Shown one piece after another: positions 4,441 to 19,234 of a stretch of 44,656 bases of DNA. This DNA comes from a virus, in IMG/VR virus record IMGVR_UViG_3300045391_001696, positions 1-44,656 of that record; one strand, given 5' to 3'. The notes under the pieces were generated by a model that worked only from the letters and a program-made list of their open reading frames with translations, had not been told where the DNA came from and searched no databases. The first letter of the stretch is position 1, and every line of letters begins with the position of its first letter. The position numbers and the translations under genes were made by a program.

Positions 4441-4848
4441 CTAGGCTGTCTTTAGAATTAATGCCGCCATTGGTTCATTGGGTGATGTATCTTGGCCTTT
4501 GCGCCGGTATTCCATCACGTGATTATAAAGCAGGGTGGTATACGCGATGGTGGCGGCCAAATCCAAACGAAGTCCTTTATTTTTTGCAGCGGCCATAATT
4601 GCTTCAGCGCATCGCTGCATTAGCTCTTCATCGGCACGATAAATCTCACCACGTGAAGAGGACGGGGAAATTAAATCTATTGGGTTTCTACCAAGCCCAC
4701 GAGCTATTTTTTCTATCCATCGAGTCGTTAGCTGCATATCGCCCTTTTCAAGCTTCATAATAGTAGCCTTGGTTGTGCCAACTTTATTAGCCAGCTCCTC
4801 CATTGACATATCCGCCGCTTGGCGAAATTCTCTGATTCGATTTTGCAT
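4441..4848 (-). CDS. cI-like XRE-family HTH repressor (135 aa from ATG 4848), no S24 peptidase domain visible
   Basis: HTH MSMEELANKVGTTKATIMKLEKG; divergent from the cro-like gene across the operator region. The track ORF extends to 5028, but that extension overlaps cro and the operators. Confidence 0.75.
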   Translation of the reverse strand: MQNRIREFRQAADMSMEELANKVGTTKATIMKLEKGDMQLTTRWIEKIARGLGRNPIDLISPSSSRGEIYRADEELMQRCAEAIMAAAKNKGLRLDLAATIAYTTLLYNHVMEYRRKGQDTSPNEPMAALILKTA

Positions 4849-4860
4849 ACTCAGAGTTTC

Positions 4861-4936
4861 ATTCCGATTGGGATAATTACTAGAGCCTAAATCGGAAACA
4901 AAAATACTTGCGTCTCGTATCCGATTAGGATACAGT
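4861..4936. promoter_or_regulatory. Divergent PR/PRM-like control region with operators
   Basis: Perfect GTATCCGATTAGGATAC at 4917-4933 sits between TTGCGT (4908-4913) and TACAGT (4931-4936). Weaker sites: ATTCCGATTGGGATA at 4861-4875 and a half-site AAATCGGAAA at 4889-4898. Confidence 0.6.
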
Positions 4937-4942
4937 GTGGGC

Positions 4943-5176
4943 ATGCAGTTATCAGAATATCTCAAATCTACTGGCATTTCAGTTGCTGAATTTGCTTCTT
5001 TAGTGGGCGCGAAAAGTCGCGCTACCATTCATCGCTATATAACCAATGTGGCATCTACAAAGCGTTACCCCAGCCCATCCATGATGAAAAAAATAACCTT
5101 CATTACGCAGGGCAAGGTTACAGCTAACGATTTTTATGGTCAGCCTTCAAAGGTTAAAAACGGAGGCAATAAATAA
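4943..5176 (+). CDS. Cro-like HTH regulator (77 aa)
   Basis: HTH ISVAEFASLVGAKSRATIHRY. The ATG lies 7 nt after the putative -10, which suggests a leaderless mRNA. The track start 4937 is a GTG. Confidence 0.65.
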   Translation: MQLSEYLKSTGISVAEFASLVGAKSRATIHRYITNVASTKRYPSPSMMKKITFITQGKVTANDFYGQPSKVKNGGNK

Positions 5177-5240: not shown

Positions 5241-5294
5241 AACAAATGCATAAAAAATTCATAAGTAACGGGCGTTAAAACATCAGGGGGATAT

Positions 5295-5486
5295 ATGAAA
5301 ACCACACTTAAACGGCTTATAGACCAGCTAGAGAAGGCCCATACTGCCGAAAGCCCTATTTTATGCCGTCAGTACGTTCTGCTTTCTCTGGGCATTGCAG
5401 AAGCTTTATTTGATAGCGCTCCGGTTGAAAATCATCCATTCGGCGGCGGTCTAATCGAGGCCATTAGGCAGCCTTGTACGGATTAG
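5295..5486 (+). CDS. hypothetical early-right protein (63 aa)
   Basis: ORF track; GGGGG RBS upstream. Confidence 0.5.
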   Translation: MKTTLKRLIDQLEKAHTAESPILCRQYVLLSLGIAEALFDSAPVENHPFGGGLIEAIRQPCTD

Positions 5487-5489
5487 GTC

Positions 5490-5747
5490 ATGGCGGCGAT
5501 GACCAAAAAAGAGCGGGAATATGCCTCAAGAGTTGCTGAACTCGGCTGCATCATTTGCGGTGGTATTGCCAGCATACACCATGCCGGTACTGGTGCTGGT
5601 GGAAGGAAAGACCACAGCAAGATTTTACCAATTTGTTACGCTCATCATCAGGGGCATGAGGGCATCCATACGTTAGGCCGTAAGGCATGGCAAAATCGTT
5701 ACGGAACCGAAACAGAGCTTCTTGAGAAGGTGAGGGAGCTGCTATGA
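5490..5747 (+). CDS. Ref-family (DUF968-like) HNH/zinc-finger nuclease
   Basis: Pattern C-x2-C...HH...KDHSKILPICYAHHQGHEGIH resembles the P1 Ref/DUF968 family. Confidence 0.55.
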   Translation: MAAMTKKEREYASRVAELGCIICGGIASIHHAGTGAGGRKDHSKILPICYAHHQGHEGIHTLGRKAWQNRYGTETELLEKVRELL

Positions 5748-6181
5748 GCGGTTACAAGGTATTTATTCCCTCGTGGCGTCCCAAGAGCTTAAACAGCCTA
5801 TTCGTTCATTGGGGTAAGGCTGCTCGTCTTAAGAAGGCCGACACTCAAACAGTATGGGCTTATTGCCACCAGATACCCAAGGCAACCACAAAGCGCCTTG
5901 TGCGGGTTAAAATATACCTTACGGGCAGACAGAAGCCCTACGATCAGGATAACTGCTGGAAGAGCCTTATGGACGCTCTGGTGAAGAACGGCCTCTTGGT
6001 CGATGACAGCAACAAATGGGTTGAGACGCTTCCCGTAGAATTCATCAAGCGGGCATTCAGTCCAGGCACAGAGATTTACCTGCAAGATATTGAACCGCTT
6101 CCCTCGGCAATCGCAGAGGGAGCCGAGCACGATTACGTTACGCGCCCGTCTAAGCCAGTTGTTGTTATGGAGGAATTATGA
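5744..6181 (+). CDS. rusA: RusA-family Holliday junction resolvase
   Basis: PYDQDNCWKSLMDALVKNGLLVDDS matches the RusA D-x-DN...K...D-x-L...DD signature; ATGA overlap with the upstream gene. Confidence 0.7.
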   Translation: MSGYKVFIPSWRPKSLNSLFVHWGKAARLKKADTQTVWAYCHQIPKATTKRLVRVKIYLTGRQKPYDQDNCWKSLMDALVKNGLLVDDSNKWVETLPVEFIKRAFSPGTEIYLQDIEPLPSAIAEGAEHDYVTRPSKPVVVMEEL

Positions 6182-6573
6182 GCTTCGAGCGCATTTACTC
6201 CTACATCATATCTAGGGTTCCATTCCTCGGGGCTAATGCCAAAAACCCCTCTATCATAACCGAGTGGCTTGCTTCCGGCTACGACACCGACAAAGACATC
6301 ATTCCTGCCGTTGATTTCGTGTGCAAGAGGGGCGTGAACACCATTAAGGGATTCGGCTGGTTTACTGGAGCTATTCGCTGGCAGCATCAAAAGCGCATCG
6401 AAGCTCAATATAAGCCGAAAGAAAAAACCCAGGCAGAAGCAGATGCCATAAGGGCTAATAACATTCGCTGGCACAAAGACAGGGGAATCACCTCAACCAA
6501 GGTTGGCCCGCAGGACTTCGCTTGGCTTGAGCAATACGAAAGGAAAAAAGAAAACGGCCTGATGAACGGTTAG
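6178..6573 (+). CDS. hypothetical protein (131 aa), last early-right gene
   Basis: ORF track; ATGA overlap with rusA. Confidence 0.55.
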   Translation: MSFERIYSYIISRVPFLGANAKNPSIITEWLASGYDTDKDIIPAVDFVCKRGVNTIKGFGWFTGAIRWQHQKRIEAQYKPKEKTQAEADAIRANNIRWHKDRGITSTKVGPQDFAWLEQYERKKENGLMNG

Positions 6574-6589
6574 AAATAAAACGGCTGCG

Positions 6590-7080
6590 TCAGGCGGCAT
6601 AGTGGCATTACAGCGGGTTCGGCAAAGTGCCAAAGTGGATGACTCAGGGGTAACCCGAAGGAACCACTTCCGAGCGTATGATTGCGTAAAAGTTCCTTGG
6701 CCTCAATGGAATCAATACCAAGTGAGGCATGTCTAAGCGGTAGCGGCTCCAGTGGGGCATATCCCGGCATGAGTCTAAATACAGGCTAATCCCTGTAGGT
6801 AGACTCTCTATGCCATCACAATAGCTCACCAGTGAAGCATATACCACTTAAGTAAGTAATAAGCACTAGATGAACATTAACTTTAATATTACGCGGCATT
6901 TTTAGAATGATTGATTTTATGGCCAGAGGGGTGATGGGGGTTTGCAAACAGTTTCTTCTCTGGCCGCCACAATAGCCCAGCAAGCAGGTGGCGTAATGCA
7001 AATAACGGCTTGCAGCAGGAGCATGGGGCGACCACATAAAGCGCTCTTTACCCGCAAGGGCTATGTGATCCTGCATAGGG
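6590..7080 (+). ncRNA. candidate structured RNA or late regulatory leader (boundaries and strand uncertain)
   Basis: No credible ORF. Nested helices at 6766-6814, 6921-6965, 6965-6993 and 7015-7074. The last contains CCC-GCAA-GGG, a GNRA tetraloop only in plus orientation. Confidence 0.3.
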
Positions 7081-7157
7081 GTAAATAGATTCGGATGCGG
7101 AATGAATGTAAAATGTTATTGCAAGCAATAGTTAATACAAGCGTTTAGGAGCTAAAC

Positions 7158-7427
7158 TTGGCAAGCAGGATAACCCCGTCTAAAGGCTCAAAGCCAGATA
7201 AGTTATGGCGAGATGCAATTGCCGTTGCGGTGCATAGGGCAATTAATGAGCAGGAAAAGAAAAACAATCTTGCTGCATTGGCGGAGAAGCTAGTTGAAAA
7301 AGGATTATCCGGCGATGTAATGGCGCTTAAGGAAATAGGCGACAGACTTGATGGCAAAGCTTCACAAGATATTAACGCAAAGCTCGCTGGAGCGGTTACT
7401 GTGAATGGCAAGGTAGAGTTTGTCTGA
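7158..7427 (+). CDS. terS: putative small terminase subunit (89 aa)
   Basis: Position immediately upstream of and overlapping terL. TTG start with AGGAG 6 nt upstream and an in-frame TAG just before. Motif ALKEIGDRLDGK is, from memory, seen in small phage DNA-binding/terS-like proteins. Confidence 0.5.
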   Translation: MASRITPSKGSKPDKLWRDAIAVAVHRAINEQEKKNNLAALAEKLVEKGLSGDVMALKEIGDRLDGKASQDINAKLAGAVTVNGKVEFV

Positions 7428-8766
7428 TTACGAGATAAACTTCAACGCCAAGATTCCCAAAGTATTTAAGAGCCTATTTAAGCCAAAACGCTATAAGATT
7501 TATTATGGCGGGCGAGGAGGAGCTAAATCATGGGGATTCGCAGATGCGTTGCTTATTATGGGCACACAGAAGCCATTACGCATATTATGCGCCCGTGAAC
7601 TACAGAAATCCATTGCCGACTCGGTACACAAGCTCCTAAGCGATCAGATAGATAAGCTTGGGCTGCACGAGTTCTACGAGATCCAAAAGACCACAATCCT
7701 TGGTATTAATGGCACCGAGTTCCTGTTCAATGGACTAAAGCATAATGCGCGTGAGATTAAATCCACTGAAGGCATTGATATATGCTGGGTGGAGGAGGCA
7801 GAAAACGTATCTGATGCAAGTTGGGAATTACTTATACCAACGGTACGTAAAGAGGGTTCTGAAATATGGATTAGCTTTAACACTAAACAGCCAACAGACG
7901 CCACATATCGGCGCTTTATATTTGAAGCCGATGATGATTCGATCATTCAAAAGGTATCTTATAAAGACAATCCGTTCTTTCCTGACGTTTTGGAACGAGA
8001 ACGATTAAGGCTTAAGGCCAAAGACCCTAAAGCCTATGAGCATGTATGGGAGGGTGAATTCGATACGCGTTTTTCTGGCGCTGTCTATGCCAAGTGGATG
8101 GCAGAGCTTAAGGATAAGGGGCGCATTACCGATAGGGTAAAACACGATCCTGATTACCCCGTATCGACGCTATGGGATTTGGGCTTTGGCGATACATGCA
8201 CACAATGGTTCTTCCAGGAGGGACCGGGTGAGGTGCTTATAATCGATTACTACGAGAACAATAACGAAGGTATTGGGCATTATTGCGAGATGCTGCAATC
8301 AAAGCCTTATAAATACCGCGCCCATTACGTGCCGCAAGACGCTGGCAAGAAGCTTATGGAAGCCAGCGGCAGATCAATCGTTGAGCAGGCTTGGCAAGAT
8401 TACAAAGTTAAGATGACGATTATCCCGGAGACAACCCACGCTAACCGGCATGAAGGATTGCGTAAGGTGCTTCCATATTGCTGGTTCAATAGCGACACAT
8501 GCGCTGCTGGCATTGAGTCGTTAATGGCATACCATTACGAATACGATGAGGATTTACAGATATTCAAGAAGATACCTGTGCATGACTGGTCAAGCCATGC
8601 TTCATCCGCCCTAGAGCTATTGCCAAGCGTGTGGAGAGGAAGAACGCCGATTACCGTAGAGGACATGAAAAACCAAGCCATACGTAACGAGTTCTTTAGA
8701 AAGCGCAGGAAGAATAAACTTGAACAGGAAGACCCATACAGGATTAAGCCGATGGGTAAGAGATGA
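7420..8766 (+). CDS. terL: terminase large subunit (PBSX/Terminase_3-like)
   Basis: Walker A YYGGRGGAKS, Walker B-like ICWVEEAE, and a C-terminal nuclease region. A TTG start is the only option in frame. Confidence 0.9.
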   Translation: MSDYEINFNAKIPKVFKSLFKPKRYKIYYGGRGGAKSWGFADALLIMGTQKPLRILCARELQKSIADSVHKLLSDQIDKLGLHEFYEIQKTTILGINGTEFLFNGLKHNAREIKSTEGIDICWVEEAENVSDASWELLIPTVRKEGSEIWISFNTKQPTDATYRRFIFEADDDSIIQKVSYKDNPFFPDVLERERLRLKAKDPKAYEHVWEGEFDTRFSGAVYAKWMAELKDKGRITDRVKHDPDYPVSTLWDLGFGDTCTQWFFQEGPGEVLIIDYYENNNEGIGHYCEMLQSKPYKYRAHYVPQDAGKKLMEASGRSIVEQAWQDYKVKMTIIPETTHANRHEGLRKVLPYCWFNSDTCAAGIESLMAYHYEYDEDLQIFKKIPVHDWSSHASSALELLPSVWRGRTPITVEDMKNQAIRNEFFRKRRKNKLEQEDPYRIKPMGKR

Positions 8767-9566
8767 ATATCTCCGTCTATGATACAGGCCACGAAATAGC
8801 CGATACCATTGCTAAATCATTAGTAATGGGTATGGAGCAAAATATTGAAGCTGATGTAGCGATTGGCTATGGGATATTACGTGGCATGGCTGCAAACTTA
8901 CGAAAGCATAAGTACTGGTTTGAACTAGACCGTGGCTACTTCAACCCAGGCCACTACGACGGATATTACCGAATAAGCTATAAAGGCACACAAGCTAGAT
9001 ATGATGCGGCATATCCCATCTCTAAACAATATGAGTGTGAGCTAAAGCCGACTAGACCATACGATAAATCAAAGCCAATATTAGTATGCCCACCCACTGA
9101 TGTTGTAATGCGGTTCTTTGGCCTGGATGATTGGCCATGCAGGGCTACAAGCAATTACGTAATACGCCATAAGGGTAATCCAAATCCCATCAATTGGGAT
9201 GATTATTCCGCATGCATAACATTTAACTCAAGTGTAGGCTGGCAGGCTTTAATAAATGGCATTCCATGTATCTCTGATCCACATCATTCTGTGGTGGGGT
9301 CATACTATAACCCACTAGGGGTAGATATTTCACTTGACGAATATGTAGAACTGTTTAATAATGTGCCTCGCAAACCTCTATTAGACTTTATGTCTTCGCA
9401 CCAGTTCACTCTGGCGGAGATCAGTAGAGGTGACGCATGCAGCTTGATAAATTACTACCTCTCAAACTATATATCGGCTGGGATTCAAGAGAAGCCGTTG
9501 CGGCAGATGTCTGTAAGCATTCCATCGCCAAACGCACTACAACGCCGCTTTCAATCGAATATCTGA
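8763..9566 (+). CDS. putative glycosyltransferase, possibly KpsS/KpsC (Capsule_synth)-like
   Basis: ATGA-coupled to terL. Segment RHKGNP...ITFNSSVGWQALINGIPCI resembles the HP...NStvGfEALl.GkPv core of Kdo-transferase-like capsule enzymes. The function call is tentative. Confidence 0.45.
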   Translation: MNISVYDTGHEIADTIAKSLVMGMEQNIEADVAIGYGILRGMAANLRKHKYWFELDRGYFNPGHYDGYYRISYKGTQARYDAAYPISKQYECELKPTRPYDKSKPILVCPPTDVVMRFFGLDDWPCRATSNYVIRHKGNPNPINWDDYSACITFNSSVGWQALINGIPCISDPHHSVVGSYYNPLGVDISLDEYVELFNNVPRKPLLDFMSSHQFTLAEISRGDACSLINYYLSNYISAGIQEKPLRQMSVSIPSPNALQRRFQSNI

Positions 9567-10255
9567 AGCACCGTGATTTACGCAAGCGCGGTTTATTCTC
9601 GCGTCCATGGATTACGCTTGGCGCATCCGGAAGCTGGATTGATCCAACGGATGAAAAGCCGTTCAGCACTGAATTTTCCCATACCAGATTCCTTGTGCCG
9701 GAGTTAATGCAGTACAAGGGATGGGCGCTATTCCTCGATAGTGACATGATATGCCTTACCGATATCGCCAAACTGTTTGCGCTTTGCGATGATAAATATG
9801 CCGTAATGTGCGTTAAGCACACGCATGTGCCGCCGCTTAATTCGCATAAGATGGATGGCCGTGAGCAATTACGTTATCGCCGCAAGAACTGGTCATCATT
9901 CGTGTTATGGAATTGCAGCCATCCAGCCAATGCCAGGATTACTAAGGAAGCCGTTGGATTCATGAGGGGAACGGATTTGCACGCCTTCTCATGGCTTACA
10001 GACGATCAGATAGGCGAATTGCCTCCGACATATAATTATATCGCTGGGGTTAGTCCCAAGCTTGCGCCTGAGCGCGGCGGTATTCCCGATGTTATCCATT
10101 ACACCGAGGGCGGCCCATGGTTTCCTGAATGCCAGGAAGTACCATATGCAGGCATGTGGATTCAGGAATACGAAGATATGCAATGCAACGGCGAGATGGT
10201 TATTTGCGATGTTCCCAGTATTGCCTATGAGAAAGAGGAGATCATTAGAAAATGA
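9437..10255 (+). CDS. GT8-like (GT-A fold) glycosyltransferase
   Basis: N-terminal LYIGWDSRE..., DxD motif FLDSDMI, later HYTEGGPWF. GAGG RBS before ATG 9437. Confidence 0.65.
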   Translation: MQLDKLLPLKLYIGWDSREAVAADVCKHSIAKRTTTPLSIEYLKHRDLRKRGLFSRPWITLGASGSWIDPTDEKPFSTEFSHTRFLVPELMQYKGWALFLDSDMICLTDIAKLFALCDDKYAVMCVKHTHVPPLNSHKMDGREQLRYRRKNWSSFVLWNCSHPANARITKEAVGFMRGTDLHAFSWLTDDQIGELPPTYNYIAGVSPKLAPERGGIPDVIHYTEGGPWFPECQEVPYAGMWIQEYEDMQCNGEMVICDVPSIAYEKEEIIRK

Positions 10256-10938
10256 CAATCGCTCTTCTTTGCCCAACGCGCTCTCGGCCAGAACAATGCA
10301 AGCGCATGATTGACTCATCTTATGCAACAGCAGACAAGATCAATGTTTATATCGGTCTGACAATAGGCGACACATCCACATACGAGATAGATCCTAAAAG
10401 GGGTGCTTATATCGCATCATTCCATGACGGTATTCCCACCGTACATAAATGGAATCTGCTTGCTGAGGAGGCATTGGCGAATCCCGATAATAAACTATTT
10501 ATGCTCGCATCCGATGACATTGTATTTACAACGCCATGTTGGGATAGGGCGCTTCTCGATCATTACAGTGGCCTAGAGAATAAAATTCATGTTTATGCGT
10601 TACAGGATAGCCGTGATCCTGAGGGCACTCCGCATCCCATCGTTACGCGTGAATATATTGAGGCGATGGGATTCTTCCTTCCACCACTATTCCTACACTG
10701 GTATTGCGATACATGGACGGTAACGATAGCCAGATCGAATCATTGTTTTACCCATCTTAAAGACTATCTGCTTGTGCATGATAAGCCATCCGATAAAGGG
10801 CAGGGCGATGCCACGCATAACCGCATTCGCCAAATGGGATGGAAAGAGCGCGACGGCTGGGTGCATGAAAACCAGCGCTATACCACGCTAGGATTTTATA
10901 GCCAGCAGCTGCGAACACATATGCGGGATGCAGCATGA
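10252..10938 (+). CDS. putative GT2-like glycosyltransferase
   Basis: N-terminal LLCPTRSRP and SDD motif (MLASDDIVF); ATGA-coupled on both sides. Confidence 0.55.
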   Translation: MTIALLCPTRSRPEQCKRMIDSSYATADKINVYIGLTIGDTSTYEIDPKRGAYIASFHDGIPTVHKWNLLAEEALANPDNKLFMLASDDIVFTTPCWDRALLDHYSGLENKIHVYALQDSRDPEGTPHPIVTREYIEAMGFFLPPLFLHWYCDTWTVTIARSNHCFTHLKDYLLVHDKPSDKGQGDATHNRIRQMGWKERDGWVHENQRYTTLGFYSQQLRTHMRDAA

Positions 10939-11927
10939 GAATATGGATAACCGGCATAGCGGGGTTCTTGGGGTCGCATCTGGCAGATGTATTGTTGGCG
11001 CAGGGTCATACTGTATCTGGTAATGATAGCATGATATGCGGAAACCCAAAGAACGTGAATAAGAAGCTTGCATATACCTATACCGATTGCCGTAGCTTTG
11101 AGCCGTTAAGCGCATTCATGCGCGAATTTAGGCCGGATGTAGTAGTCCATTGCGCTGCTACCGCCCATGAGGGATTAAGTTCATTCAGTCCATCATTTAT
11201 TACCAGGAATATCTACGAAGCGTCCGTAACGACATTCAGTGCCGCTATTGCAGCTGGTGTTAAACGCATTGTTTATATGTCAAGCATGAGCCGGTATGGC
11301 AATGGCGATCCCCCCTTTGCGGAAGATCATTGGCCAGGGCCAGTCGATCCATATGGCATAGCCAAGGTTGCCGCAGAAGAAACGCTTAAAATCCTTTGCA
11401 ATACACACGGAGTAAAATACGCGATTGCTGTCCCTCATAATATTATTGGCATACGCCAGCGCAGCAATGATCCTTATCGGAATGTTGCCGCAATTATGAT
11501 TAATCGCTGTAAGCAAGGCAAATCGCCGATCATCTATGGCGATGGCTCACAGAAGAGATGTTTCAGCCCCGTTGCCGATTGTCTGCCGTCCCTTATTAAG
11601 ATGGTAAATGGCGAAGCCGACGGCGAGATTGTCAATATCGGCCCAGATAATAGCGAAATAACCATCCTTGAGCTTGCCAATATTATCAAGCAGATCACGC
11701 ATTGCGATCAGGATATTATGTATATGCCAGGTCGTCCTAATGAGGTACATGACGCTTATTGCTCAAGCGATAAAGCCCGCAGATTGCTAGGTTATGAAAA
11801 GAAGCAAAGCCTTCGTATGTGCCTAGAAGAAATGGCTGAATATATCAGGCCGCAGCCCTTTGATTATGATTTCCCTATAGAAATTACTCAGGGTTGCCCC
11901 AAGACATGGATTGGGAGGCTGATGTGA
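10935..11927 (+). CDS. NAD-dependent nucleotide-sugar epimerase/dehydratase (extended SDR)
   Basis: Rossmann motif ITGIAGFLGSHL and catalytic PYGIAKVAAE (YxxxK). Confidence 0.85.
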   Translation: MRIWITGIAGFLGSHLADVLLAQGHTVSGNDSMICGNPKNVNKKLAYTYTDCRSFEPLSAFMREFRPDVVVHCAATAHEGLSSFSPSFITRNIYEASVTTFSAAIAAGVKRIVYMSSMSRYGNGDPPFAEDHWPGPVDPYGIAKVAAEETLKILCNTHGVKYAIAVPHNIIGIRQRSNDPYRNVAAIMINRCKQGKSPIIYGDGSQKRCFSPVADCLPSLIKMVNGEADGEIVNIGPDNSEITILELANIIKQITHCDQDIMYMPGRPNEVHDAYCSSDKARRLLGYEKKQSLRMCLEEMAEYIRPQPFDYDFPIEITQGCPKTWIGRLM

Positions 11928-12115
11928 AGTGCGCTTATAATAATTGCCGTAAGAAATTCAAGGCAATAAAAACCTTTTGCCCAAAGAAATATTGTTCGAG
12001 AAAATGTAAGCAGCTTTCTGCACGGCAACGAGCAATCAAGAAAAATCCAGAATATTATCGGGAGTTGCAAAGAAGATGGACTGCTGCATGGAAGGCAAAA
12101 AAATGCCAACCATAG
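11906..12115 (+). CDS. small basic zinc-ribbon-like protein
   Basis: Cys pattern C-x4-C...FCPKKYCSRKC. The start may instead be GTG 11924, which has a GGGAGG RBS and a GTGA overlap with the epimerase stop. Confidence 0.45.
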   Translation: MDWEADVKCAYNNCRKKFKAIKTFCPKKYCSRKCKQLSARQRAIKKNPEYYRELQRRWTAAWKAKKCQP

Positions 12116-12519
12116 CAATCTCCGGCGGTTTTGATCCTATACATGGCGGTCATATCGACCTGATCGACGAAGCATCCATCTATGGCGATGTCGTTGTTAT
12201 CCTCAATAGTGATGACTGGCTCACACGCAAGAAGGGTAAGCCATTTATGAAATGGGAGCACCGCGCAAAGGTAATGCGTAGTATTAAGGGAATTCTCAAT
12301 GTTATCCCCGTGGATGATTCAGATGGCACTGTATGTTCGGCGCTTCGGCAGTTAAAGCCTGATTATTTTGCCAACGGAGGTGACCGCACGAATGAGAATA
12401 CGCCAGAACTAAAAATATGCGCCGATTATGGCATTAAGCCTCTATTCGGCATAGGTGGCGATAAGACAGGTAGCAGCAGTGCCTTAATTAGGGGGGCCAT
12501 GCAGTTCCATGATTGGTAA
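12103..12519 (+). CDS. cytidylyltransferase-family sugar-phosphate nucleotidyltransferase (RfaE domain II/TagD-like)
   Basis: ISGGFDPIHGGHIDLI (HxGH motif) and overall RfaE-II-like layout; trimmed to ATG 12103 with GGAAGG RBS. Confidence 0.75.
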   Translation: MPTIAISGGFDPIHGGHIDLIDEASIYGDVVVILNSDDWLTRKKGKPFMKWEHRAKVMRSIKGILNVIPVDDSDGTVCSALRQLKPDYFANGGDRTNENTPELKICADYGIKPLFGIGGDKTGSSSALIRGAMQFHDW

Positions 12520-12793
12520 TCGTTTGGTATTTCGCACATGGGGTTGGTATCTGGTATTGCTTAACCGTAAGCGCTTCAAGGTGAAATTATTGCGCTTCAA
12601 CGGTAAGCGCAGGATGTCCCGCCAATATCATAAATTCAGGAATGAATTATGGCTGTTTCTTACAGGCGCGCATAAAGGCACTTGGCGCAAGCATCACAAG
12701 CGCAAGGAGCATACCTATACCGGGGATAAGGCATTGGTTATTGAAATCCAGTATGGCTCCAAATGCGAGGAGAGCGATATTGTCAGATTATGA
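12509..12793 (+). CDS. cupin-domain protein (type II phosphomannose-isomerase C-terminal-like)
   Basis: RTWGWYLVL...KVKLLRF...[20 protein letters not shown] resembles the RPWG...KvK.l.v.PG..lSlQ.H..R.E.W cupin core. Confidence 0.6.
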
Positions 12794-13473
12794 ATCCAAT
12801 ATGCATTATTCCGGCGCGCATGGCCTCTACACGACTGCCGGGAAAGCCGTTGATGGATATAGACGGAAAGCCAATGGTCGTGCGGGTGGCGGAACGTGCA
12901 ACAATAGGGATGAAAATGCTGCAATTTGACGAACTTTGGAAGAAGATAAACGAGCGCGGTTCAATCGTTACCGTGCAGGAATACCATGAGCTTAAGCATG
13001 TATTTAATCTCATGCAGGAAGCCGAATCTTATCTTGAAGTTGGAAGCGCCGAGGGCAATTCTTTGTATGTGCTTTCACACGCGCTAAAACCGGGCGGGCA
13101 TATCACCTATATTGATTGGGATGAGCCGCATACCAGAGAACCGCGCAAACAGGTTGTACAGGATATATGCGACAGGGGAATCAGCGTTATAGGCATACAT
13201 GCAGATAGCAATGACTTTATCTCCAAAGATCAGATTAAGGATTACAAATACGATATCGTTCTAATCGATGCCGGCCATGAAGATTTCAATGTAGCAATCG
13301 ATGCCATGCTGTATGGGCCTCTAGCTACGAAATATATCATATTCCATGACATCATGCTTCCTGACGTTGCCAGGGCGTTTAAATGGTACGCGGCACAAAG
13401 ACCGGATTGCAAGATGAGCATGTATGTCAATAGCCAGACATTTGGCTATGGAATTTTGGAGATAAAGCAATGA
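12790..13473 (+). CDS. fusion protein: about 40-aa KdsB (CMP-Kdo synthetase) N-terminal remnant joined to a class I SAM-dependent methyltransferase
   Basis: [37 protein letters not shown] matches only the KdsB N-terminus. It is followed by [10 protein letters not shown]...[13 protein letters not shown]-coupled to the cupin gene. An alternative methyltransferase-only start exists at 12910. Confidence 0.65.
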
Positions 13474-15188
13474 ATGATATAGCGGTAATTACAACATTTC
13501 CCAACAATTCATGGGAAATTTACGCCAAGAAGATGATTCAATCGTTTGTGGCTAACTGGCCGCAGGAAATACCGCTGTTGATACAGCTTGATGATGATTT
13601 GCTAGTGCGTGACGTACAAAAGCTATTGCGCCCGCAGGATGCCATTGCCGTGGGTTGGGAAGATGACCACAAAGCATTTGTAGAGCGCAATAAGGGTAAA
13701 GATGATCCACAGGACTACCGCAAGCAGGCCGTTAGATTCTGTCATAAGGTATTTGCGATTAGGCGTGCTTTAAAAGCCATTGAAGATGCCAAGGCTAATA
13801 ATGAACCGACAGCGCGTTACTTGATCTGGGTGGATGCCGATGTCATCACGCAGCGCAAGGTAACGCTTGATGAGGTGAGGGAATGTCTGCCCAAAGAAGG
13901 TGACGCCATTGCGTATCTTGGCCGTAAGGACTGGCCGCATAGCGAATGTGGTTGGCTGGCGTTTGACTTGGAAAATGGCGGCGATCTAGCTATTGCCAAT
14001 ATGTTTAATACCTATGTTTCTGAGGAGATTTTTAAACACACGCAAACTCATGACTCATGGATTTGGGATAGGTTGCGCGAGATTCAAGAAAATTCTGGGA
14101 TGAAATGGACAAACCTCACTGCCGATAAACCCGGTATGGACATCTGGCCGCATAGCCCAATGGGCAAATGGTCAACGCATTACAAGGGACCACAGGCCAA
14201 AGCCGATCTTGTCAATCTCGGTCAGCCAAGACAGCTCAACCAAAATGGCATGCAAAGCAATATTATTATTCAGACGCAAAACGCCATTCCTAACGAAGAA
14301 ATCCGCAAGAATATCGAAACTAACCAAACGCTTATCAATCATTGGATAAGGCCGTGCAAGCCAACAGATGAGGAAATTGTCGTGGTCTCGGCAGGGCCGA
14401 TGCTTATTGCCGAAGATGTGCGCCGGGAAAGGGGCAAGCGCATTGTAGCCGTAAAACATGCATTGGAACCGCTTAAGGCGGCTGGTATTAAGCCTTGGGC
14501 GTGTATATTGCTAGACCCGCGCGACCATGTAGCTAAGTTCGTTGATAATCCCGATAAAGATGTTATTTGGATCGTGGCAAGTCAGGTGCAACCGGAAGTC
14601 ACCAGAAAACTGATTGACGCCGGGTGTACGGTGTGGGGGTATCATGCCGCAGTGGCCGCCGGAGAGCAGGAGCTTACCAAAAAACAACAATATGCAGTAA
14701 TCAGCGGCGGAAGCGCTACTGCAACTCGTGGGCTGTATGTACTAAAGCATCTTGGTTTTAAGAACATGGTTTTATATGGTTATGATCTGTGTTTTGCCGA
14801 CCGGCAGGATCTTAACGCAAGGGATGAACGCGGTCAGCCTAAATATCTTGAGATGTCCATTGGGTTGCAGCACCCGCTTTACAGCATCAAGCGCTGCTTC
14901 TGGTCTGAGCCGCAGCTTATTGCCCAATTTGAAGAACTAAACGACATCATTAAAAACAATATCTTCAATCTAAGAGCATATGGCGATGGCATTATCCCCT
15001 TTGTTTTAAAGGCAAAGCAGACGGGTGAATTGCGAGAGAGTGAATTAAGGACTAAAATTAACGGTAAACGTTTACCCACATATGAGCAGCTATTGAAATG
15101 CAGCAGCAAGAAAAAGATGCTATCCTCAATGATGCGGCAGCTGAAGTGGCTGCTGAGCCCCCTGAAAACGATCAGGAACAGCAATTAA
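13470..15188 (+). CDS. two-domain protein (572 aa): N-terminal GT-A-like domain plus C-terminal DUF115/MptE/Maf-like Rossmann domain
   Basis: N-terminal domain: IWVDADV (DxD). C-terminal domain: VVVSAGPML...[29 protein letters not shown] resembles the DUF115 G-x-G-P-S-L...P-D-x-x-x-x-D core. Confidence 0.55.
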
Positions 15189-17293
15189 TTGATGGTCTGG
15201 CCCAATCTGAACTAGCCGGACGCGTTAAAAACGCTGCCGAGACCTACAATCTTGCCCAAGACATGGAAGATGGCCTGTTGCGGGAAATAGGCCAGGAATG
15301 CGCTAACGGGCTTAAGGATGACGATGAAAGCCGCGCCGAATGGCTTGATATGCATGCTTTCTGGCTGTCTCTTTATATGCAGCAGGATTATGCAGAAAAC
15401 TCCGATGCGGAGCGTTCATGGGGCGCAACCGAATCTGTCCCGATTCTTACTGAATCCTGTAATCAATTCCAGTCGCGCACATACAAAGCGTTTTTCCCTC
15501 AGGATAACTTCGTATCGGCAGTTCCGATGCGTAAAACCAGAGAGGATAGGGCGGTTCTTGAGGAACGCGCTAAACGCGTTGGCGATCATATGTCTTATCA
15601 GCTTGGTTATCTGGACCGCGCTTATAAACAGGATAAAGACGCGTTATTTCTCGGTGTACCTATTCACGGAAGCTTTTTCACCAAGACCTATTTCAGCGAT
15701 AGGTTAAAGCGTTTTAAAGTAGATAACGTTCGTCCTACAGATCTCGTTGTTAATTATAACGTAGGTCCTGTTCGTATCGAAGATGTGCGCCGCAAATCGC
15801 ATATGATCTATACGACCGTAGGAGAAACGGAAGAAGCCGTAAGGCGCGGTTTCCTTGTATCTCCATGCATTTCATCTATGCAGGATGGCAACAACGTGTA
15901 CAATATCAAGGTAGATGAATCGCAGGGATTAACCGAGCCCAATTCTTCCATTAAACGAGATCGTCCGGCTATCCTTGTCGAGCAGCACTTATATCTTGAT
16001 CTGGATGGTAACGGATTCCGCCCGTATATCGTGACGTTCGATCCTGCGCGTCGTAGCGTCAAGCGCATGACTATTGGCTATGAAGCAGATCAAATGGGTA
16101 ATCCGCTAAAAGATTACGAACAGACGCAGTATTTCACCCATTATAAATACCGAGAAAACCCTGACGGTTTCTATGGCTTCGGCTTAGGACAGGATATCGG
16201 TGATTTAAATGCCGCTATCAATATCATGCTCAGGCAGTCTATGGATGCCGCTACGCTTGCCAATGACGGCAATATGTCCGGCTTTATAAGCGAGCGCCTT
16301 GGCCTTGAGGGCGATGAAATTCGCATGGTGCTGGGTAAACTAACAAAGATACCCGATCAAGTGCAGGATATGGATTCCAGCATTATGATGATGAAATTCC
16401 CTGGCCCTAATGATGCTATGCTTAAAATCATGCAGGCTATGGATGAGCGCGCACAGCGCATGGCATCGACTACGGAAGCCACCACAGGAACCATGGATAA
16501 GGTCGTGCAGCCCACCACCTATCTGACGCAGGTTGAGCAGGCTCTTGAGCCCTTCAGCAGCGTCCAGATGCGCCTTGCATCATCAATGACCGATGAATTC
16601 CAGAAGATATACAAGATTAATCAGAAATACCTGCCACTGGTCGATTACTACATCGTTGATGGTGCGCCTGAAATGGTCACCCGCTCCGATTATGCCGATG
16701 ATATGCTCATTGCACCAATCTTCGATCCTAAATTCAGCACCCAATCACAGAAGGTAGCGCGTTCACAGGCAGTAGCCCAGGTAGTGATGGCTAACCCGCT
16801 TACCCAGACACGCCCACAGGTTATGGATGCAATTACTAAGAGGCAGCTTGAGGCGCTTGATATCGATAATATCGAAGAATTAGTACCAGAATTGCCGCCA
16901 CCAGCCAGAATTGACGACCAAAACCAAGAAAATATGTTATTTATGATGCCAAGCGGTTCCGCGCCTCCGTTTGATGTATTCCCCGACCAAAACCATGCCG
17001 AGCATTTGGCAAAACTGGAGCCATTCGTTAAAAGTGAAGGCGGAAAACTGATGCCAGACCAGCAGCAAGCCGTCTTAGCACACAAACAAAAGCATGAGGC
17101 ATTCCTATATGGACAAAAGCAAGGGCTCGTCCCACCGCCCAGACAGGTCGGAAATACATCATTGGACGCACGACAGGGTGACGAGATGGGTAATGGACAA
17201 CCTCAATCGGCAATTCCCAATCTGGCCGCCTTACTTGCCCCCCAAATCGCTGGAGCAGGCCCATCAGTCAGCGGGGCAGCAGCAAGTTCTTAA
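15098..17293 (+). CDS. portal protein (731 aa)
   Basis: Size, position in the head module, an acidic N-terminus and a Pro/Gln-rich C-terminal tail. The family was not identified by eye. Confidence 0.7.
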   Translation: MQQQEKDAILNDAAAEVAAEPPENDQEQQLIDGLAQSELAGRVKNAAETYNLAQDMEDGLLREIGQECANGLKDDDESRAEWLDMHAFWLSLYMQQDYAENSDAERSWGATESVPILTESCNQFQSRTYKAFFPQDNFVSAVPMRKTREDRAVLEERAKRVGDHMSYQLGYLDRAYKQDKDALFLGVPIHGSFFTKTYFSDRLKRFKVDNVRPTDLVVNYNVGPVRIEDVRRKSHMIYTTVGETEEAVRRGFLVSPCISSMQDGNNVYNIKVDESQGLTEPNSSIKRDRPAILVEQHLYLDLDGNGFRPYIVTFDPARRSVKRMTIGYEADQMGNPLKDYEQTQYFTHYKYRENPDGFYGFGLGQDIGDLNAAINIMLRQSMDAATLANDGNMSGFISERLGLEGDEIRMVLGKLTKIPDQVQDMDSSIMMMKFPGPNDAMLKIMQAMDERAQRMASTTEATTGTMDKVVQPTTYLTQVEQALEPFSSVQMRLASSMTDEFQKIYKINQKYLPLVDYYIVDGAPEMVTRSDYADDMLIAPIFDPKFSTQSQKVARSQAVAQVVMANPLTQTRPQVMDAITKRQLEALDIDNIEELVPELPPPARIDDQNQENMLFMMPSGSAPPFDVFPDQNHAEHLAKLEPFVKSEGGKLMPDQQQAVLAHKQKHEAFLYGQKQGLVPPPRQVGNTSLDARQGDEMGNGQPQSAIPNLAALLAPQIAGAGPSVSGAAASS

Positions 17294-17715: not shown

Positions 17716-17930
17716 AGTTTTTAAGATTAAAACCATTTCTAGTTTTCTTTGCTCTTGGCGTGATCCAAGGCATATATTTTATTGTTAGCAATAATATAAA
17801 AATAGTCCCTCTTAACGCCGTGATTGCTCTGACAAGTCGTGGGGTTGGTGCATCTATCTGGGCAATACCTTATTGCTTTTTTACCCGCAAAGGAAAAACA
17901 AAGGCAGAATTCGATGTTGAAAAATCATAG
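17712..17930 (+). CDS. small two-TM membrane protein (72 aa), moron-like
   Basis: Hydrophobic segments FLVFFALGVIQGIYFIV and GVGASIWAIPYCFF; visibly AT-rich DNA. Confidence 0.5.
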   Translation: MKFLRLKPFLVFFALGVIQGIYFIVSNNIKIVPLNAVIALTSRGVGASIWAIPYCFFTRKGKTKAEFDVEKS

Positions 17931-18162
17931 CATAAAATATTTGATTATCCCACTTTTGTTGTGCGCCTGCACAACTCCCAAAACTATTTTAAAAAATGAA
18001 TCTACTGGTCAGATTGCCATTTGCGGCGGTACGGCTAACGGATCATTTGCCGGGGGAATCATTGGTTATCATGTGCAAAAGGCCAATGATGAGGACTGTG
18101 TCAATGACTATAAGTCCGAAGGTTTCTCAATTTTAAAATCCGAAAATAATAACGCCCAATAG
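17914..18162 (+). CDS. predicted lipoprotein (82 aa), moron-like
   Basis: MLKNHSIKYLIIPLLLCACTTP has a signal peptide with a lipobox-like LCAC. AT-rich. The track ORF was trimmed to ATG 17914. Confidence 0.55.
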   Translation: MLKNHSIKYLIIPLLLCACTTPKTILKNESTGQIAICGGTANGSFAGGIIGYHVQKANDEDCVNDYKSEGFSILKSENNNAQ

Positions 18163-18888: not shown

Positions 18889-18895
18889 GAGCAAT

Positions 18896-19234
18896 ATGAG
18901 CAAGTATAATCCCAAATTTGGTAGAGTTTTAATTGAGCGAGAAGTTACGAAAAAGACAACGGGCGGTATTATTATTCCCGATTCTGCATCTAAACGTAAT
19001 GCAAGCTGTATCGGCAAAATCATCGCATTAGGCGAAACCGCAGGCTGGACAGAAACATTCGATGAATCCGGCGATAGAATCGCCGTGCAAACCCTCAAAA
19101 TTGGCCAGACCGTAATCTTTGGCAGGCATTCTGGAGCTTGGCTGGATGCTACCTACGATAATAAGGGCGGCGAAAATGACGACGGAAGTTTATTCATCTG
19201 CCAAGACGCAGATATTTTAGCAACAGTGGAGTAG
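18896..19234 (+). CDS. groES: GroES/Cpn10-family co-chaperonin homologue
   Basis: FGRVLIEREVTKKTTGGIIIPDSA...GKIIALG...IGQTVIFGRHSG...DADILATVE aligns by eye with bacterial GroES; AGGAG RBS before ATG 18896. Confidence 0.8.
   Translation: MSKYNPKFGRVLIEREVTKKTTGGIIIPDSASKRNASCIGKIIALGETAGWTETFDESGDRIAVQTLKIGQTVIFGRHSGAWLDATYDNKGGENDDGSLFICQDADILATVE

Follow-up and report, generated by a model that had tools for sequence, protein, structure and literature searches.

In the seroconversion cassettes of temperate phages (gtrABC, O-antigen acetylase/polymerase), the glycan-modifying genes are found beside the attachment site; the lysogen expresses them, and their products are integral membrane proteins of the Gtr or Wzy type. 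Glycosyltransferase (GT) genes are also found within the head operon of Cluster O actinobacteriophages. In Corndog, gp35-38 comprise one O-methyltransferase and three glycosyltransferases encoded between portal and protease; these products are expressed in infected cells and are not found in virions, and glycosylation of the capsid or tail has been proposed as their role (PMC4351075). According to the account of Freeman 2023 given in PMC12582341, glycosylation of mycobacteriophage virions is documented for capsid and tail proteins. Among bacterial enzymes, the characterised motility-associated factors (Maf), flagellin nonulosonic-acid O-glycosyltransferases, without exception carry out their protein glycosylation in the cytoplasm, and some of them can use CMP-Kdo (PMC11339370; bioRxiv 2020.06.03.131540). 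WbbB, KpsC and KrkA modify O-antigen or capsule glycolipids, likewise from the cytoplasm and without transmembrane segments, and QXXXD and HP motifs have been defined for the beta-Kdo transferases (PMC12887879). In yet other phages, pairs of glycosyltransferases and sugar epimerases glycosylate 5hmC, sometimes beside terminase genes (bioRxiv 2023.12.21.572611).

The actinobacteriophage virion-glycosylation cassettes are the closest precedent for an island at positions 8763-15188 of IMG/VR record IMGVR_UViG_3300045391_001696 (44,656 nt; this whole stretch is termed the window). Eight sizeable ORFs and one small one, all on the plus strand, are bounded by the genes, also on the plus strand, for the large terminase TerL (7420..8766; Pfam Terminase_3, 9.3e-44; TIGR01547, 2.8e-47) and the portal protein (15098..17293; phrog_1216 portal, 1.9e-15; SU10_portal, 1.3e-6). 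The junction sequences show ATGA overlaps at TerL/ORF1, GT8/GT, GT/SDR and methyltransferase/Maf-like fusion, as well as between the cupin gene and a kdsB fragment (kdsB'), and a GTGA overlap between the SDR gene and the small ORF; the remaining island junctions are overlaps of 11, 31, 91 and 130 nt, with the tail of the fusion protein gene covering 91 nt at the portal start. These observations bear out the original prediction of nine co-oriented ORFs between terL and portal, linked at most junctions by ATGA or GTGA overlaps beginning at terL/8763. We detected no predicted terminator inside the island and no excess of predicted promoters. In GC content the island cannot be told apart from the remaining genome, and its translation is coupled to that of TerL.

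The likeness to Corndog is one of gene content and position, namely glycosyltransferase and O-methyltransferase genes inside a head-assembly operon. However, the present island occupies the TerL-portal interval and is roughly double the size; in addition it encodes an SDR, a nucleotidyltransferase and a cupin, together with a Maf-like domain and a Kdo-transferase-like fold. Moreover, the phage itself is unrelated, with SU10-type portal and adaptor genes, a temperate lifestyle (it encodes an integrase and a CI-like repressor) and a diderm host (its genome encodes an embedded Rz/Rz1-type spanin), in which CMP-Kdo and heptose phosphates are therefore available. The earlier description of such an island as not a standard phage module was overstated, given the Cluster O genes and another uncultured podovirus with GT8, FkbM-type methyltransferase and TPR genes within its structural module.

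The first gene, ORF1 (8763..9566), encodes a 267-aa protein predicted to be a soluble two-Rossmann-domain transferase (AF2 model; pLDDT 85, pTM 0.81). Foldseek ranks WbbB (GT99; 8csc/5fa1, E 8.5e-5), KpsC of the KpsC/KpsS group (GT107; 6mgd, 6.5e-4) and KrkA (GT140) first for this model, so that the suggested KpsS/KpsC-like identity holds at the level of the fold. The predicted fold resembles those of these retaining beta-Kdo transferases, at low TM-scores of 0.35-0.38. ORF1 is, however, much shorter and lacks both their QXXXD nucleophile and (K/R)XHP motifs, carrying C-P-P-T-x-x-V where QXXXD is expected and R-x-K-G where H-P is expected; it keeps an N-S-S-x-G phosphate-binding-like motif (N155-S156-S157) where their CMP-phosphate-binding serines lie. 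Pfam Capsule_synth weakly matches two of 25 family members, and a precomputed Pfam domain is present in none of 393 ORF1 homologues. ORF1 is followed by a GT8-family retaining glycosyltransferase of the GT-A fold (9437..10255; Pfam Glyco_transf_8, 4.3e-7, 30.2 bits against a cutoff of 24.3; phrog_28018, 7e-54), in which D101-x-D103 and the H..GGPWF motif with H221 are invariant among nine orthologues. The second GT-A-type enzyme (10252..10938; phrog_14945 'glycosyltransferase', 1.6e-18) displays P-x-R-x-R and D88-D89 motifs, with residues invariant across nine orthologues, and its homologues are annotated as glycosyltransferases in Pelagibacter and Streptomyces phages.

The next genes encode enzymes of sugar tailoring. 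An extended SDR of the GalE-like nucleotide-sugar 4-epimerase type (10935..11927; Pfam Epimerase, 7e-43) shows GxxGxxG and SS...YxxxK motifs; its sequence has no TDE dehydratase motif, and its best solved relatives are UDP-glucose 4-epimerase (4zrm, 5e-38), PelX (6wjb) and UDP-GlcA decarboxylase. The gap between it and the nucleotidyltransferase holds a small Cys-rich, zinc-ribbon-like ORF (11924..12115; listed as 11894-12115, with GTG 11924 as the probable start), which has no homologue in any related locus, is strain-specific and is probably outside the core pathway. The HxGH (HIGH-motif) nucleotidyltransferase of the cytidylyl/adenylyltransferase superfamily (12076..12519; Pfam CTP_transf_like, 6.6e-15; phrog_7878, 8e-22) matches rfaE_dom_II at 3e-16, under the equivalog cutoff. 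Its PDB relatives, namely the Fom1 cytidylyltransferase domain (5x3d, 6e-11), ECT (3elb, 4e-10) and TagD (1coz, 4e-8), point to several possible substrates, those of the relatives ranging over hydroxyethylphosphonate, phosphoethanolamine, glycerol phosphate and heptose phosphate. The minimal 94-aa cupin of the type-II phosphomannose-isomerase kind (12509..12793; Pfam MannoseP_isomer, 1.2e-10; GMP_PMI, 2e-7) bears the motif S-x-Q-x-H-x-x-R-x-E-x-W and a second His, with Q39, H41, R44, E46, W48 and H68 invariant among eight orthologues. A class I SAM-dependent (O-)methyltransferase (12763..13473; Pfam Methyltransf_24, 1.2e-7; Methyltransf_3, 2.7e-4; phrog_15516) completes this set, and is predicted to be of the small-molecule O-methyltransferase type. 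Orthologue alignment places its conserved part from about residue 51 (about nt 12913) onwards, leaving some 50 extra N-terminal residues. Within the first ~47 of these lies, fused in frame, a fragment that corresponds to the 5' end (~36-38 codons) of a CMP-Kdo synthetase gene (kdsB'; 12790..12903; NCBIfam KdsB models, 6.5e-14, residues 8-47; PDB KdsB 3k8d, 3e-10, with the alignment beginning at the KdsB N-terminus). In two related loci (L020 and L021) its equivalent is a free 50-aa ORF at the equal position, and with a dN/dS of 0.09 across 36 codons the fragment appears to be under purifying selection.

The last gene of the island encodes a 572-aa fusion protein. Its N-terminal domain (13470..14219; residues 1-250, AF2 pLDDT about 90), originally proposed to be a glycosyltransferase, has a predicted GT-A fold of the GT6/GT8-like kind, retrieving alpha-1,3-galactosyltransferase, glycogenin and LARGE1 in Foldseek searches (E 1e-8 to 1e-6), and contains an invariant W120-x-D122-A-D124 motif. 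Its C-terminal part (14292..15188) is a Maf/MptE-like (Maf_flag10, DUF115) domain with a short helical tail (Pfam MptE-like, PF01973, 1.2e-18, 67.9 bits against a cutoff of 34.6, profile positions 4-170 of 171; PseD domain model, 1.4e-6). The whole protein finds Maf of Magnetospirillum (5mu5, E 4.6e-9) as its top Foldseek match, and its BFVD matches are MptE-like proteins from uncultured phages. Since PF01973 also includes a pterin pyrophosphokinase, the putative transferase activity is read from fold rank alone. Missed in the original prediction, this domain gives the strongest indication that the acceptor is a protein. Like Maf, the fusion is predicted to be a soluble cytoplasmic enzyme. It differs in having a GT-A domain with DxD where Maf has a degenerate Rossmann domain at its N-terminus, in lacking the N- and C-terminal domains through which flagellin Mafs presumably bind flagellin (the latter being a long helical, flagellin/chaperone-like domain), and in being phage-encoded and unlinked to flagellin or pse/leg/neu genes.

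Every related contig that covers the region repeats this gene order, with amino-acid identities of 35-77%, which indicates that the arrangement is not due to chance. The island separates TerL from portal in all ten genomes spanning that interval, whereas further-removed relatives that share the order of head genes have portal directly after TerL. The ten genomes all retain ORF1, GT8, the GT-A enzyme, the Maf-like fusion and the nucleotidyltransferase, which every island examined contains, and portals 59-72% identical follow the island in all relatives. The accessory genes vary (HNH, GT17, PMM, 2OG-oxygenase-like, tRNA-synthetase-like), a pattern like that of surface-glycan loci, and among relatives a small lipoprotein moron comes and goes at the edge of the island. 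The fusion protein is represented by at least 540 metagenomic clusters at 90% identity and ORF1 by 393, on contigs of up to 41-48 kb; the family has 209 representatives at 50% identity (E below 1e-30), and no cultured clade member or host genome was found. These comparisons make the island a clade hallmark, a fixed and internally variable part of the head operon in what we take to be temperate phages of diderm hosts. Beyond the clade, genes 187-189 of Pelagibacter phage Mosig EXVC030M are adjacent homologues of ORF1 (26%), GT8 (37%) and the GT-A half of the fusion (28%), flanked by methyltransferases and another glycosyltransferase. Mosig is, in contrast, a T4-like myovirus, with these genes beside nucleotide-metabolism genes and without the Maf-like domain.

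Searches with Pfam, phrog, NCBIfam and structures thus confirm that the ORFs are sugar-active enzymes, Pfam matching each of the epimerase SDR, HxGH nucleotidyltransferase, PMI-like cupin and SAM methyltransferase. Of the self-contained activate-tailor-transfer pathway once envisaged the enzymes stand and the full self-containment does not, as the window encodes no mutase, kinase or ulosonic-acid synthase and host precursors would therefore be needed. Nonulosonic-acid or Kdo synthesis genes are absent except for the 36-codon kdsB remnant; none of the island proteins has a hydrophobic segment above 1.6 (19-residue Kyte-Doolittle window), and polyprenyl-phosphate transferase, flippase, polymerase and ligase genes were not found. 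We favour, at about even chances, the interpretation that the island is a late cytoplasmic protein glycosylation cassette, probably acting on virion proteins. In the order of steps that we infer, host nucleotide sugars and sugar phosphates would be tailored first, with the GalE-like SDR epimerising UDP-hexose or UDP-HexNAc, the PMI-type cupin converting a ketose phosphate to a manno-configured aldose phosphate, and the nucleotidyltransferase activating a phospho-sugar or phospho-alcohol (giving NDP-mannose/heptose or CDP-X). Four soluble transferase domains (those of GT8, the GT-A enzyme, the fusion's GT-A half and ORF1, itself similar to cytidine-nucleotide-dependent beta-Kdo/TagF-type transferases) may then build a short hetero-oligosaccharide, which the methyltransferase would cap or decorate. 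The Maf-like half would form the Ser/Thr protein linkage, with a CMP-activated ulosonic acid as its donor by analogy with Maf enzymes; host CMP-Kdo is plausible here because Maf enzymes can use it and the island carries the kdsB remnant. The most likely acceptor would be at least one virion protein made from the same transcript. These virion proteins have no Pfam matches and no obvious Ser/Thr-rich tail or repeat.

A Maf-like fold implies a protein acceptor without specifying which, and the target might instead be a host flagellin, pilin, receptor or defence/metabolic protein, or a non-structural phage protein, so as to take over or blind the cell. The window does encode a possible O-glycosylation substrate, a protein of 376 aa on the early strand in which a Ser/Thr-rich 9-aa unit (SGxSSxAAS) occurs in at least 17 copies. 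However, its gene is part of the early region and on the opposite strand, the flagellin-binding C-terminal domain is absent from the fusion, and the head-operon position with perfect portal/TerL linkage across the clade fits a structural target better; we consider a non-virion target distinctly improbable. Glycosylation of phage DNA bases before packaging would suit the adjacency to TerL, and one relative's island has a faint 2OG-Fe(II) oxygenase-like ORF; as in the DNA hypermodification clusters (C5-MT and 5mYOX/TET with GT, with or without epimerase), GT-A enzymes are paired with a donor-supplying epimerase. It is nonetheless a very remote prospect, as nowhere in the genome did we find the base-hydroxymethylating enzymes that define such clusters: C5-cytosine methyltransferase, TET/JBP-type dioxygenase, thymidylate-synthase-like hydroxymethylase and DNA polymerase are all missing from the window, its sole DNA methylase is of N6/N4 type and far from the island, outside the island and the head-tail module all ORFs of 200 aa or more are otherwise accounted for, and the island methyltransferase is of the predicted small-molecule type.

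Unlikely, though less so than these, is remodelling of the host envelope, in which lipid-linked host glycans (LPS core, O-antigen terminus, capsule linker) would be modified by the enzymes at the cytoplasmic face and then exported by the host in altered form, leading late in infection to less progeny adsorption to debris or in a lysogen to superinfection exclusion. This is consistent with WbbB, KpsC and KrkA as the nearest folds of ORF1, the LPS heptose enzyme RfaE domain II as the closest NCBIfam model of the nucleotidyltransferase, the kdsB remnant, the temperate lifestyle and the lipoprotein moron at the island edge in relatives. Soluble enzymes such as WbbB and KpsC also work on inner-leaflet lipid-linked acceptors, and a temperate phage may have a lysogen-expressed role for the island. 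Nevertheless, the characterised relatives of the Maf-like domain have protein acceptors only, and a surface change that begins only minutes before lysis could hardly arrive at the outer membrane in time. Unlike seroconversion cassettes, with which it shares glycan-modifying genes in a temperate phage, the island lies in the predicted late operon, joined to TerL and portal by stop/start overlaps without a promoter and terminator of its own, and its products are all predicted to be soluble, the membrane Gtr or Wzy-type proteins not being found here. Late cytoplasmic glycosylation of virion proteins, should this prove to be the function of the island, would provide each phage lineage with its own surface glycan.

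Eight sizeable + strand ORFs occupy the interval between the gene for the large terminase (TerL, 7420-8766; Terminase_3, 9e-44) and the portal gene (15098-17293), which is the 3' neighbor of this island, and their coordinates agree exactly with those of the original prediction (8763-15188). The sole apparent gap in the series, between the SDR and nucleotidyltransferase genes, is filled by a small + strand ORF (11924-12115) for a Cys-rich, zinc-ribbon-like protein with the pattern CxxxxC...CxxxxCxxxC, which has no counterpart in any related locus; in relatives, the same junction is a slot of accessory genes. Adjacent genes share an ATGA overlap at TerL/ORF1 (ORF1, 8763-9566, 267 aa), between the two stand-alone glycosyltransferase genes, between the second of these and the SDR gene, at the methyltransferase/fusion protein junction, and also where the cupin stop meets the start of a KdsB-like fragment. 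The SDR gene and the small ORF share a GTGA overlap, and the other island junctions are overlaps of 11 to 130 nt. Two are unusually long, ORF1/GT8 (130 nt, 9437-9566) and fusion protein/portal (91 nt, 15098-15188), and since both recur in a relative, L001, as overlaps of 85 and 109 nt, respectively, they are probably genuine and not the result of miscalled start codons. The GC content of the island (0.45-0.48) is the same as that of the rest of the genome, a consensus scan placed promoter-like sites in it more rarely than in shuffled sequence, and a sequence scan found no convincing + strand terminator within it. No island protein has a transmembrane-grade hydrophobic segment (maximal 19-residue hydropathy 1.53). 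Likewise, none matches a defense-system model at a meaningful level in PADLOC, for which reason a defense-system identity of the island was dropped.

The last gene of the island (13470-15188) encodes a 572-aa protein, whose N-terminal domain is glycosyltransferase-like as originally predicted; a second, Maf-like domain had been overlooked. The AlphaFold2 model of this fusion protein, built with a 22-sequence alignment (pLDDT 84.6), comprises two domains with a disordered tail at the end. Residues 1-250 are predicted to adopt a GT-A fold like that of the GT6 and GT8 retaining transferases, with an invariant W-x-D-A-D motif, and residues 275-531 constitute an MptE-like/DUF115 (Maf-like) domain (Pfam, 1.2e-18). 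The match to PF01973 (Maf_flag10/MptE-like) scores 67.9 bits against a gathering cutoff of 34.6 and aligns residues 279-444 with positions 4-170 of the 171 in the profile. When the whole model is compared with the PDB, the flagellin glycosyltransferase Maf ranks first (5mu5; E 4.6e-9, probability 1.0), with a global TM-score of only 0.33 because the flanking domains differ. Maf enzymes have three domains, including a C-terminal helical flagellin/chaperone-like one (PMC11339370), which the fusion protein lacks. The flagellin-modifying Maf enzymes are also linked to genes for flagellin and for CMP-nonulosonic-acid synthesis, whereas the island has no such linkage: among the window ORFs scanned we found neither kind of gene, only the 36-codon kdsB fragment. 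For the fusion protein, ORF1, the cupin and the second glycosyltransferase, fold searches alone were informative against the PDB. Sequence searches with the fusion protein, both single and as a profile, returned nothing, as did those with the second glycosyltransferase and the cupin, and the ORF1-family profile gave one insignificant match (2kzx, E 0.26).

ORF1 has no Pfam match. Its predicted model (pLDDT 85, pTM 0.81) has as its first Foldseek matches the retaining beta-Kdo transferases WbbB, KpsC and KrkA (best E 8.5e-5), with the best 15 PDB matches all being WbbB or KpsC chains (TM 0.35-0.38), and shares with these enzymes (GT99/GT107/GT140) a fold of two Rossmann-like domains. Retaining beta-Kdo transferases are defined by a QXXXD motif, supplying the Asp nucleophile, and a CMP-binding (K/R)XHP motif (PMC12887879). 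In place of the former, the ORF1 family consensus has C-P-P-T-x-x-V after the equivalent strand (106-109), and D113 of the window protein is not conserved in the family; in place of the latter it has R135-x-K137-G138, these equivalences being drawn by secondary-structure order rather than structural superposition. Capsule_synth (PF05159), the commonest family in the scan, is undetected in the window ORF1 and matches two of 25 family members weakly (best E 0.0039). As QXXXD and the HP motif are missing and N-S-S-x-G alone is kept of the motifs compared, this is a resemblance of fold and not of membership, and ORF1 should not be filed with the retaining beta-Kdo transferases. The model nevertheless suggests that ORF1 is like them in fold and probably also in binding a cytidine nucleotide donor.

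Domain and motif evidence matched the sugar-active types expected for the remaining ORFs. The GT8 glycosyltransferase (9437-10255; Pfam, 30.2 bits against a cutoff of 24.3) has both the DxD motif and a C-terminal one of the H-x-x-G-x-x-(K)PW type, with D101-S-D103, H221 and G225-G-P-W-F invariant in nine orthologues, and the second glycosyltransferase (10252-10938; phrog glycosyltransferase, 1.6e-18) is a GT-A enzyme with invariant PxRxR and DD motifs. The closest solved relatives of the extended SDR (10935-11927) are UDP-hexose 4-epimerases (4zrm, matched at 5.4e-38 over residues 1-305, and PelX) and UDP-GlcA decarboxylase. Its motifs are G7-IA-G10-FL-G13 and S-S-M-S...Y-G-I-A-K, corresponding to the GxxGxxG site for NAD and the Ser plus YxxxK triad. 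An NDP-hexose 4,6-dehydratase was ruled out, with S-S-M-S-R standing where Thr-Asp-Glu would be expected and every NCBIfam dehydratase equivalog scoring far under its cutoff; with SS...YxxxK present and the TDE motif missing, the enzyme is by its motifs epimerase-like (GalE-like). The nucleotidyltransferase (12076-12519) belongs to the PF01467 superfamily, with HxGH and S-S-S-x-L-I-R motifs. Its nearest NCBIfam model is RfaE domain II, the heptose-1-phosphate adenylyltransferase, an assignment rejected at 59.4 bits against an equivalog cutoff of 181.5. In the PDB, it comes closest to other cytidylyltransferases, namely the Fom1 cytidylyltransferase domain, ECT and TagD, so that more than one substrate may be considered. 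It is followed by a minimal PMI-type cupin (12509-12793), whose metal and substrate motif is kept in eight orthologues, and by a class I SAM methyltransferase (12763-13473).

The first ~47 residues of the methyltransferase include the N-terminus of the CMP-Kdo synthetase KdsB. In this fragment (12790-12903), a KdsB start codon overlapping the cupin stop is followed by 36-38 codons and then by the methyltransferase start. In the related contigs L020 (7930-8082) and L021 (1713-1865), which lack the methyltransferase, this fragment is found at the same position in the form of a free ORF of 50 aa. Three clade members thus keep it at one position, fused to the methyltransferase gene in one (the window) and free in the other two, and the shared junction suggests a single ancestral event. 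Over 36 codons, dS is 1.29 and dN 0.11; the resulting dN/dS of 0.09 argues against a decaying pseudogene, and the peptide therefore appears to be maintained. Historically, the fragment ties the island to the metabolism of CMP-Kdo, and the named bacterial sequences that it matches best, KdsB fragments from betaproteobacteria, give a weak hint of the host. A conserved 36-codon remnant of this kind is a small puzzle by itself.

Queried by megablast with the stretch from TerL to portal, 50,697 phage records yielded no match, and thus no cultured close relative. Portal-based and protein-identity look-ups in IMG/VR, Logan, ENA, JGI and NCBI metagenomes recovered 16 related stretches, not counting L008, which duplicates the window. 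Ten genomes span the interval; each has the island between TerL and portal, with ORF1, the nucleotidyltransferase, the GT8 and GT-A enzymes and the GT-A/Maf fusion all detectable. The SDR and the cupin are each missing from one genome, and the methyltransferase is missing from L020 (and from L021, a partial contig). In relatives, the variable part is the middle of the island, which has gained HNH endonucleases at differing positions (L009 2051-2572; L011 6456-6950), a GT17 glycosyltransferase (L009 5704-6492), a PMM-type phosphomannomutase, several small ORFs, a faint 2OG-oxygenase-like ORF and a class-I tRNA-synthetase-like ORF of 247 aa (L016 8261-9004). The phosphomannomutase gene lies between those for the SDR and the nucleotidyltransferase (L010 7760-8419), and this position, along with the PMI-type cupin, suggests a route by way of isomerase, mutase and nucleotidyltransferase to an NDP-manno-sugar (mannose or heptose), for which the window phage would draw the mutase from its host. 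In a wider census, clustering at 90% left the fusion protein with at least 540 relatives, on contigs reaching 41-48 kb, and clustering at 50% with 209 representatives (E below 1e-30), including three-domain variants and stand-alone halves; ORF1 has 393 relatives.

The expectation that terL and portal adjoin in related phages held for more distant ones: in the uncultured phage MW202796.1 and the Alcaligenes phage QDWS535, which have the same head-gene order (portal 27-28% and capsid 34-35% identity), TerL is followed directly by portal. Gene order thus marks the island as a clade-specific insertion, vertically inherited thereafter. The only tblastn match of the fusion protein is in the cultured Pelagibacter phage Mosig, at 28% identity over the N-terminal domain. 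In this phage (MT647606.1, 4952-10786), homologues of the GT-A half, GT8 and ORF1 are adjacent and constitute a sub-module common to the island. It is flanked there by two methyltransferases, a sulfotransferase and a further glycosyltransferase, and adjoins ribonucleotide reductase genes. A second, unrelated instance of glycosylation-type genes within a structural module is found in MW202512.1, an uncultured 44-kb podovirus. Here, genes for a TPR protein, an endonuclease, an FkbM methyltransferase and a GT8-like 'galT-like' protein (5251-8684) lie between those for the major capsid and a 'phage stabilization protein'.

The window comprises an entire phage genome (~44.6 kb) that was assembled as a circle, and its ends overlap by 60 nt inside an array of 27-nt tandem repeats across the circular junction (1-205 and 44375-44656), leaving the repeat number uncertain. 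An early-region ORF on the - strand runs over the junction and encodes a protein of ~376 aa, without a Pfam match, that has at least 17 copies of the Ser/Thr-rich 9-aa repeat SGxSSxAAS. The phage is evidently temperate, with a tyrosine integrase (37538-38617, - strand) ~22 kb from the island, a CI-like HTH repressor (4441-5028, - strand), a Rad52-type recombinase and RusA. The window has no tRNA gene that might mark an attachment site, and scans of GTDB genomes with the fusion-protein and portal alignments recovered no prophage. The lysis genes include a holin-like ORF (33174-33410), two lysozyme-type genes and a Rz-like i-spanin (33407-33805) that embeds, in another frame, a Pro-rich Rz1-like lipoprotein ORF with the lipobox LSGC (33582-33734); this spanin pair indicates a diderm host. 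The head module includes a major capsid protein of the Mu-gpT/Phage_capsid_4 type (21352-22269) and, between the portal and scaffold-like genes, a GroES/Cpn10-like co-chaperonin gene (18821-19234) that is kept across the clade and in the island-less MW202796.1 and QDWS535. A lipoprotein-like gene (17839-18162, lipobox LLLCAC) lies 3' of the portal gene, and in some relatives a small gene of this kind directly follows TerL (L001 3617-3805; L011 2601-2801). A DUF2846 lipoprotein gene, of unproven relationship to it, follows the portal gene in L009 and TerL in L010. The lipoprotein-like gene thus behaves like a mobile moron at the island edges.

Virion glycosylation is documented in giant viruses and, more recently, in actinobacteriophages, where it alters antibody recognition. 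The island resembles the virion-glycosylation cassettes of the latter in having glycosyltransferase and O-methyltransferase genes within the structure and assembly operon, a likeness of gene content and position. [quoted passage not shown] Glycosyltransferase cassettes in phage structural operons are therefore already known, and the island is not new in kind. Our literature searches found no report of virion glycosylation in phages of Gram-negative hosts, nor the enzyme set of the island, with its GT-A/Maf fusion, motif-less beta-Kdo-transferase-like protein, sugar-nucleotide tailoring enzymes and conserved kdsB remnant. They likewise returned no such cassette at the TerL-portal position, with a diderm host, or in a clade of this size or internal variability.

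The best-supported reading of the island is that of a late cytoplasmic cassette for glycan assembly and protein glycosylation. What the analysis shows is to which families and folds the enzymes belong, that they are conserved, where the island sits, that overlapping codons couple it to TerL and portal, and that all its products are soluble; the steps of the pathway are inferred. The Maf-like domain would place a CMP-activated ulosonic acid on Ser/Thr of a protein, with host CMP-Kdo as a plausible donor, because Maf enzymes accept it (PMC11339370; bioRxiv 2020.06.03.131540). The GT-A, GT8 and ORF1 enzymes would lengthen the glycan with epimerized UDP-sugars and the nucleotidyltransferase product, the methyltransferase would cap it, and the acceptors would be virion proteins from the same transcript. 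A virion acceptor was not identified in silico: composition revealed no striking Ser/Thr-rich segment in any virion protein, and Pfam gave nothing for ten structural or uncharacterized window proteins. Just upstream of the GroES-like gene, we noted a low-complexity protein of 227 aa, rich in Gly, Ala and Ser and hydrophobic at its N-terminus (18205-18888), which has no detectable family and is conserved at 37-53% identity in every clade member examined. It was weighed as an acceptor; its absence from the island-less relatives carries no weight, these being too distant.

Other targets for the same enzymes have to be considered. It is credible that they remodel the host envelope at the inner leaflet, in line with the WbbB/KpsC-like fold of ORF1, the RfaE-like nucleotidyltransferase and the temperate lifestyle; however, such a role sits poorly with the presence of a Maf-like domain, with the missing membrane partners and with the welding of the island into the late operon. 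The gtr-type seroconversion cassettes, too, differ in consisting of membrane GtrA/GtrB/Gtr(type) proteins encoded beside att and int, whereas the island is soluble and remote from the integrase. It is possible that the glycosylated protein is not a virion component, as the early-strand protein with Ser/Thr-rich nonapeptide repeats offers a candidate in the genome itself. Sugar hypermodification of DNA (cf. bioRxiv 2023.12.21.572611) is unlikely and was dropped as the main reading because the base-hydroxymethylating enzymes are absent. Phage clusters of that kind have either a C5-methyltransferase with a 5mYOX/TET enzyme or a ThyS-like hydroxymethylase, but the window ORFs scanned include no C5-cytosine methylase, 5mYOX/TET-like dioxygenase, ThyS-like hydroxymethylase or DNA polymerase, and the sole DNA methyltransferase found is the orphan N6/N4 enzyme (N6_N4_Mtase).

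Tentatively, and as a proposal that we hold to be rather doubtful in its full form, this large, uncultured temperate clade infecting Gram-negative bacteria might O-glycosylate its own capsid or tail proteins by means of the phage-specific GT-A/Maf fusion. A host-derived ulosonic acid such as Kdo would start or join the glycan, the island enzymes would extend and methylate it, and variation in gene content would produce lineage-specific virion 'glycotypes'. If true, Maf-type glycosylation of proteins would for the first time be known beyond flagella, extending these enzymes past flagellin, and phages of diderm hosts would have their first autonomous pathway for a virion glycan. Such a system would also provide soluble, compact protein-glycosylating enzymes, possibly with a Kdo-on-protein linkage, for glyco-engineering. 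A conserved 6-7 kb head-operon pathway in hundreds of metagenomic genomes would mean that tailed phages can own multi-step glycan factories. That the island varies in its middle hints at diversifying selection acting at the surface of the particle, and such selection would bear on the interactions of these phages with their hosts, with immune systems and with antiphage defenses.
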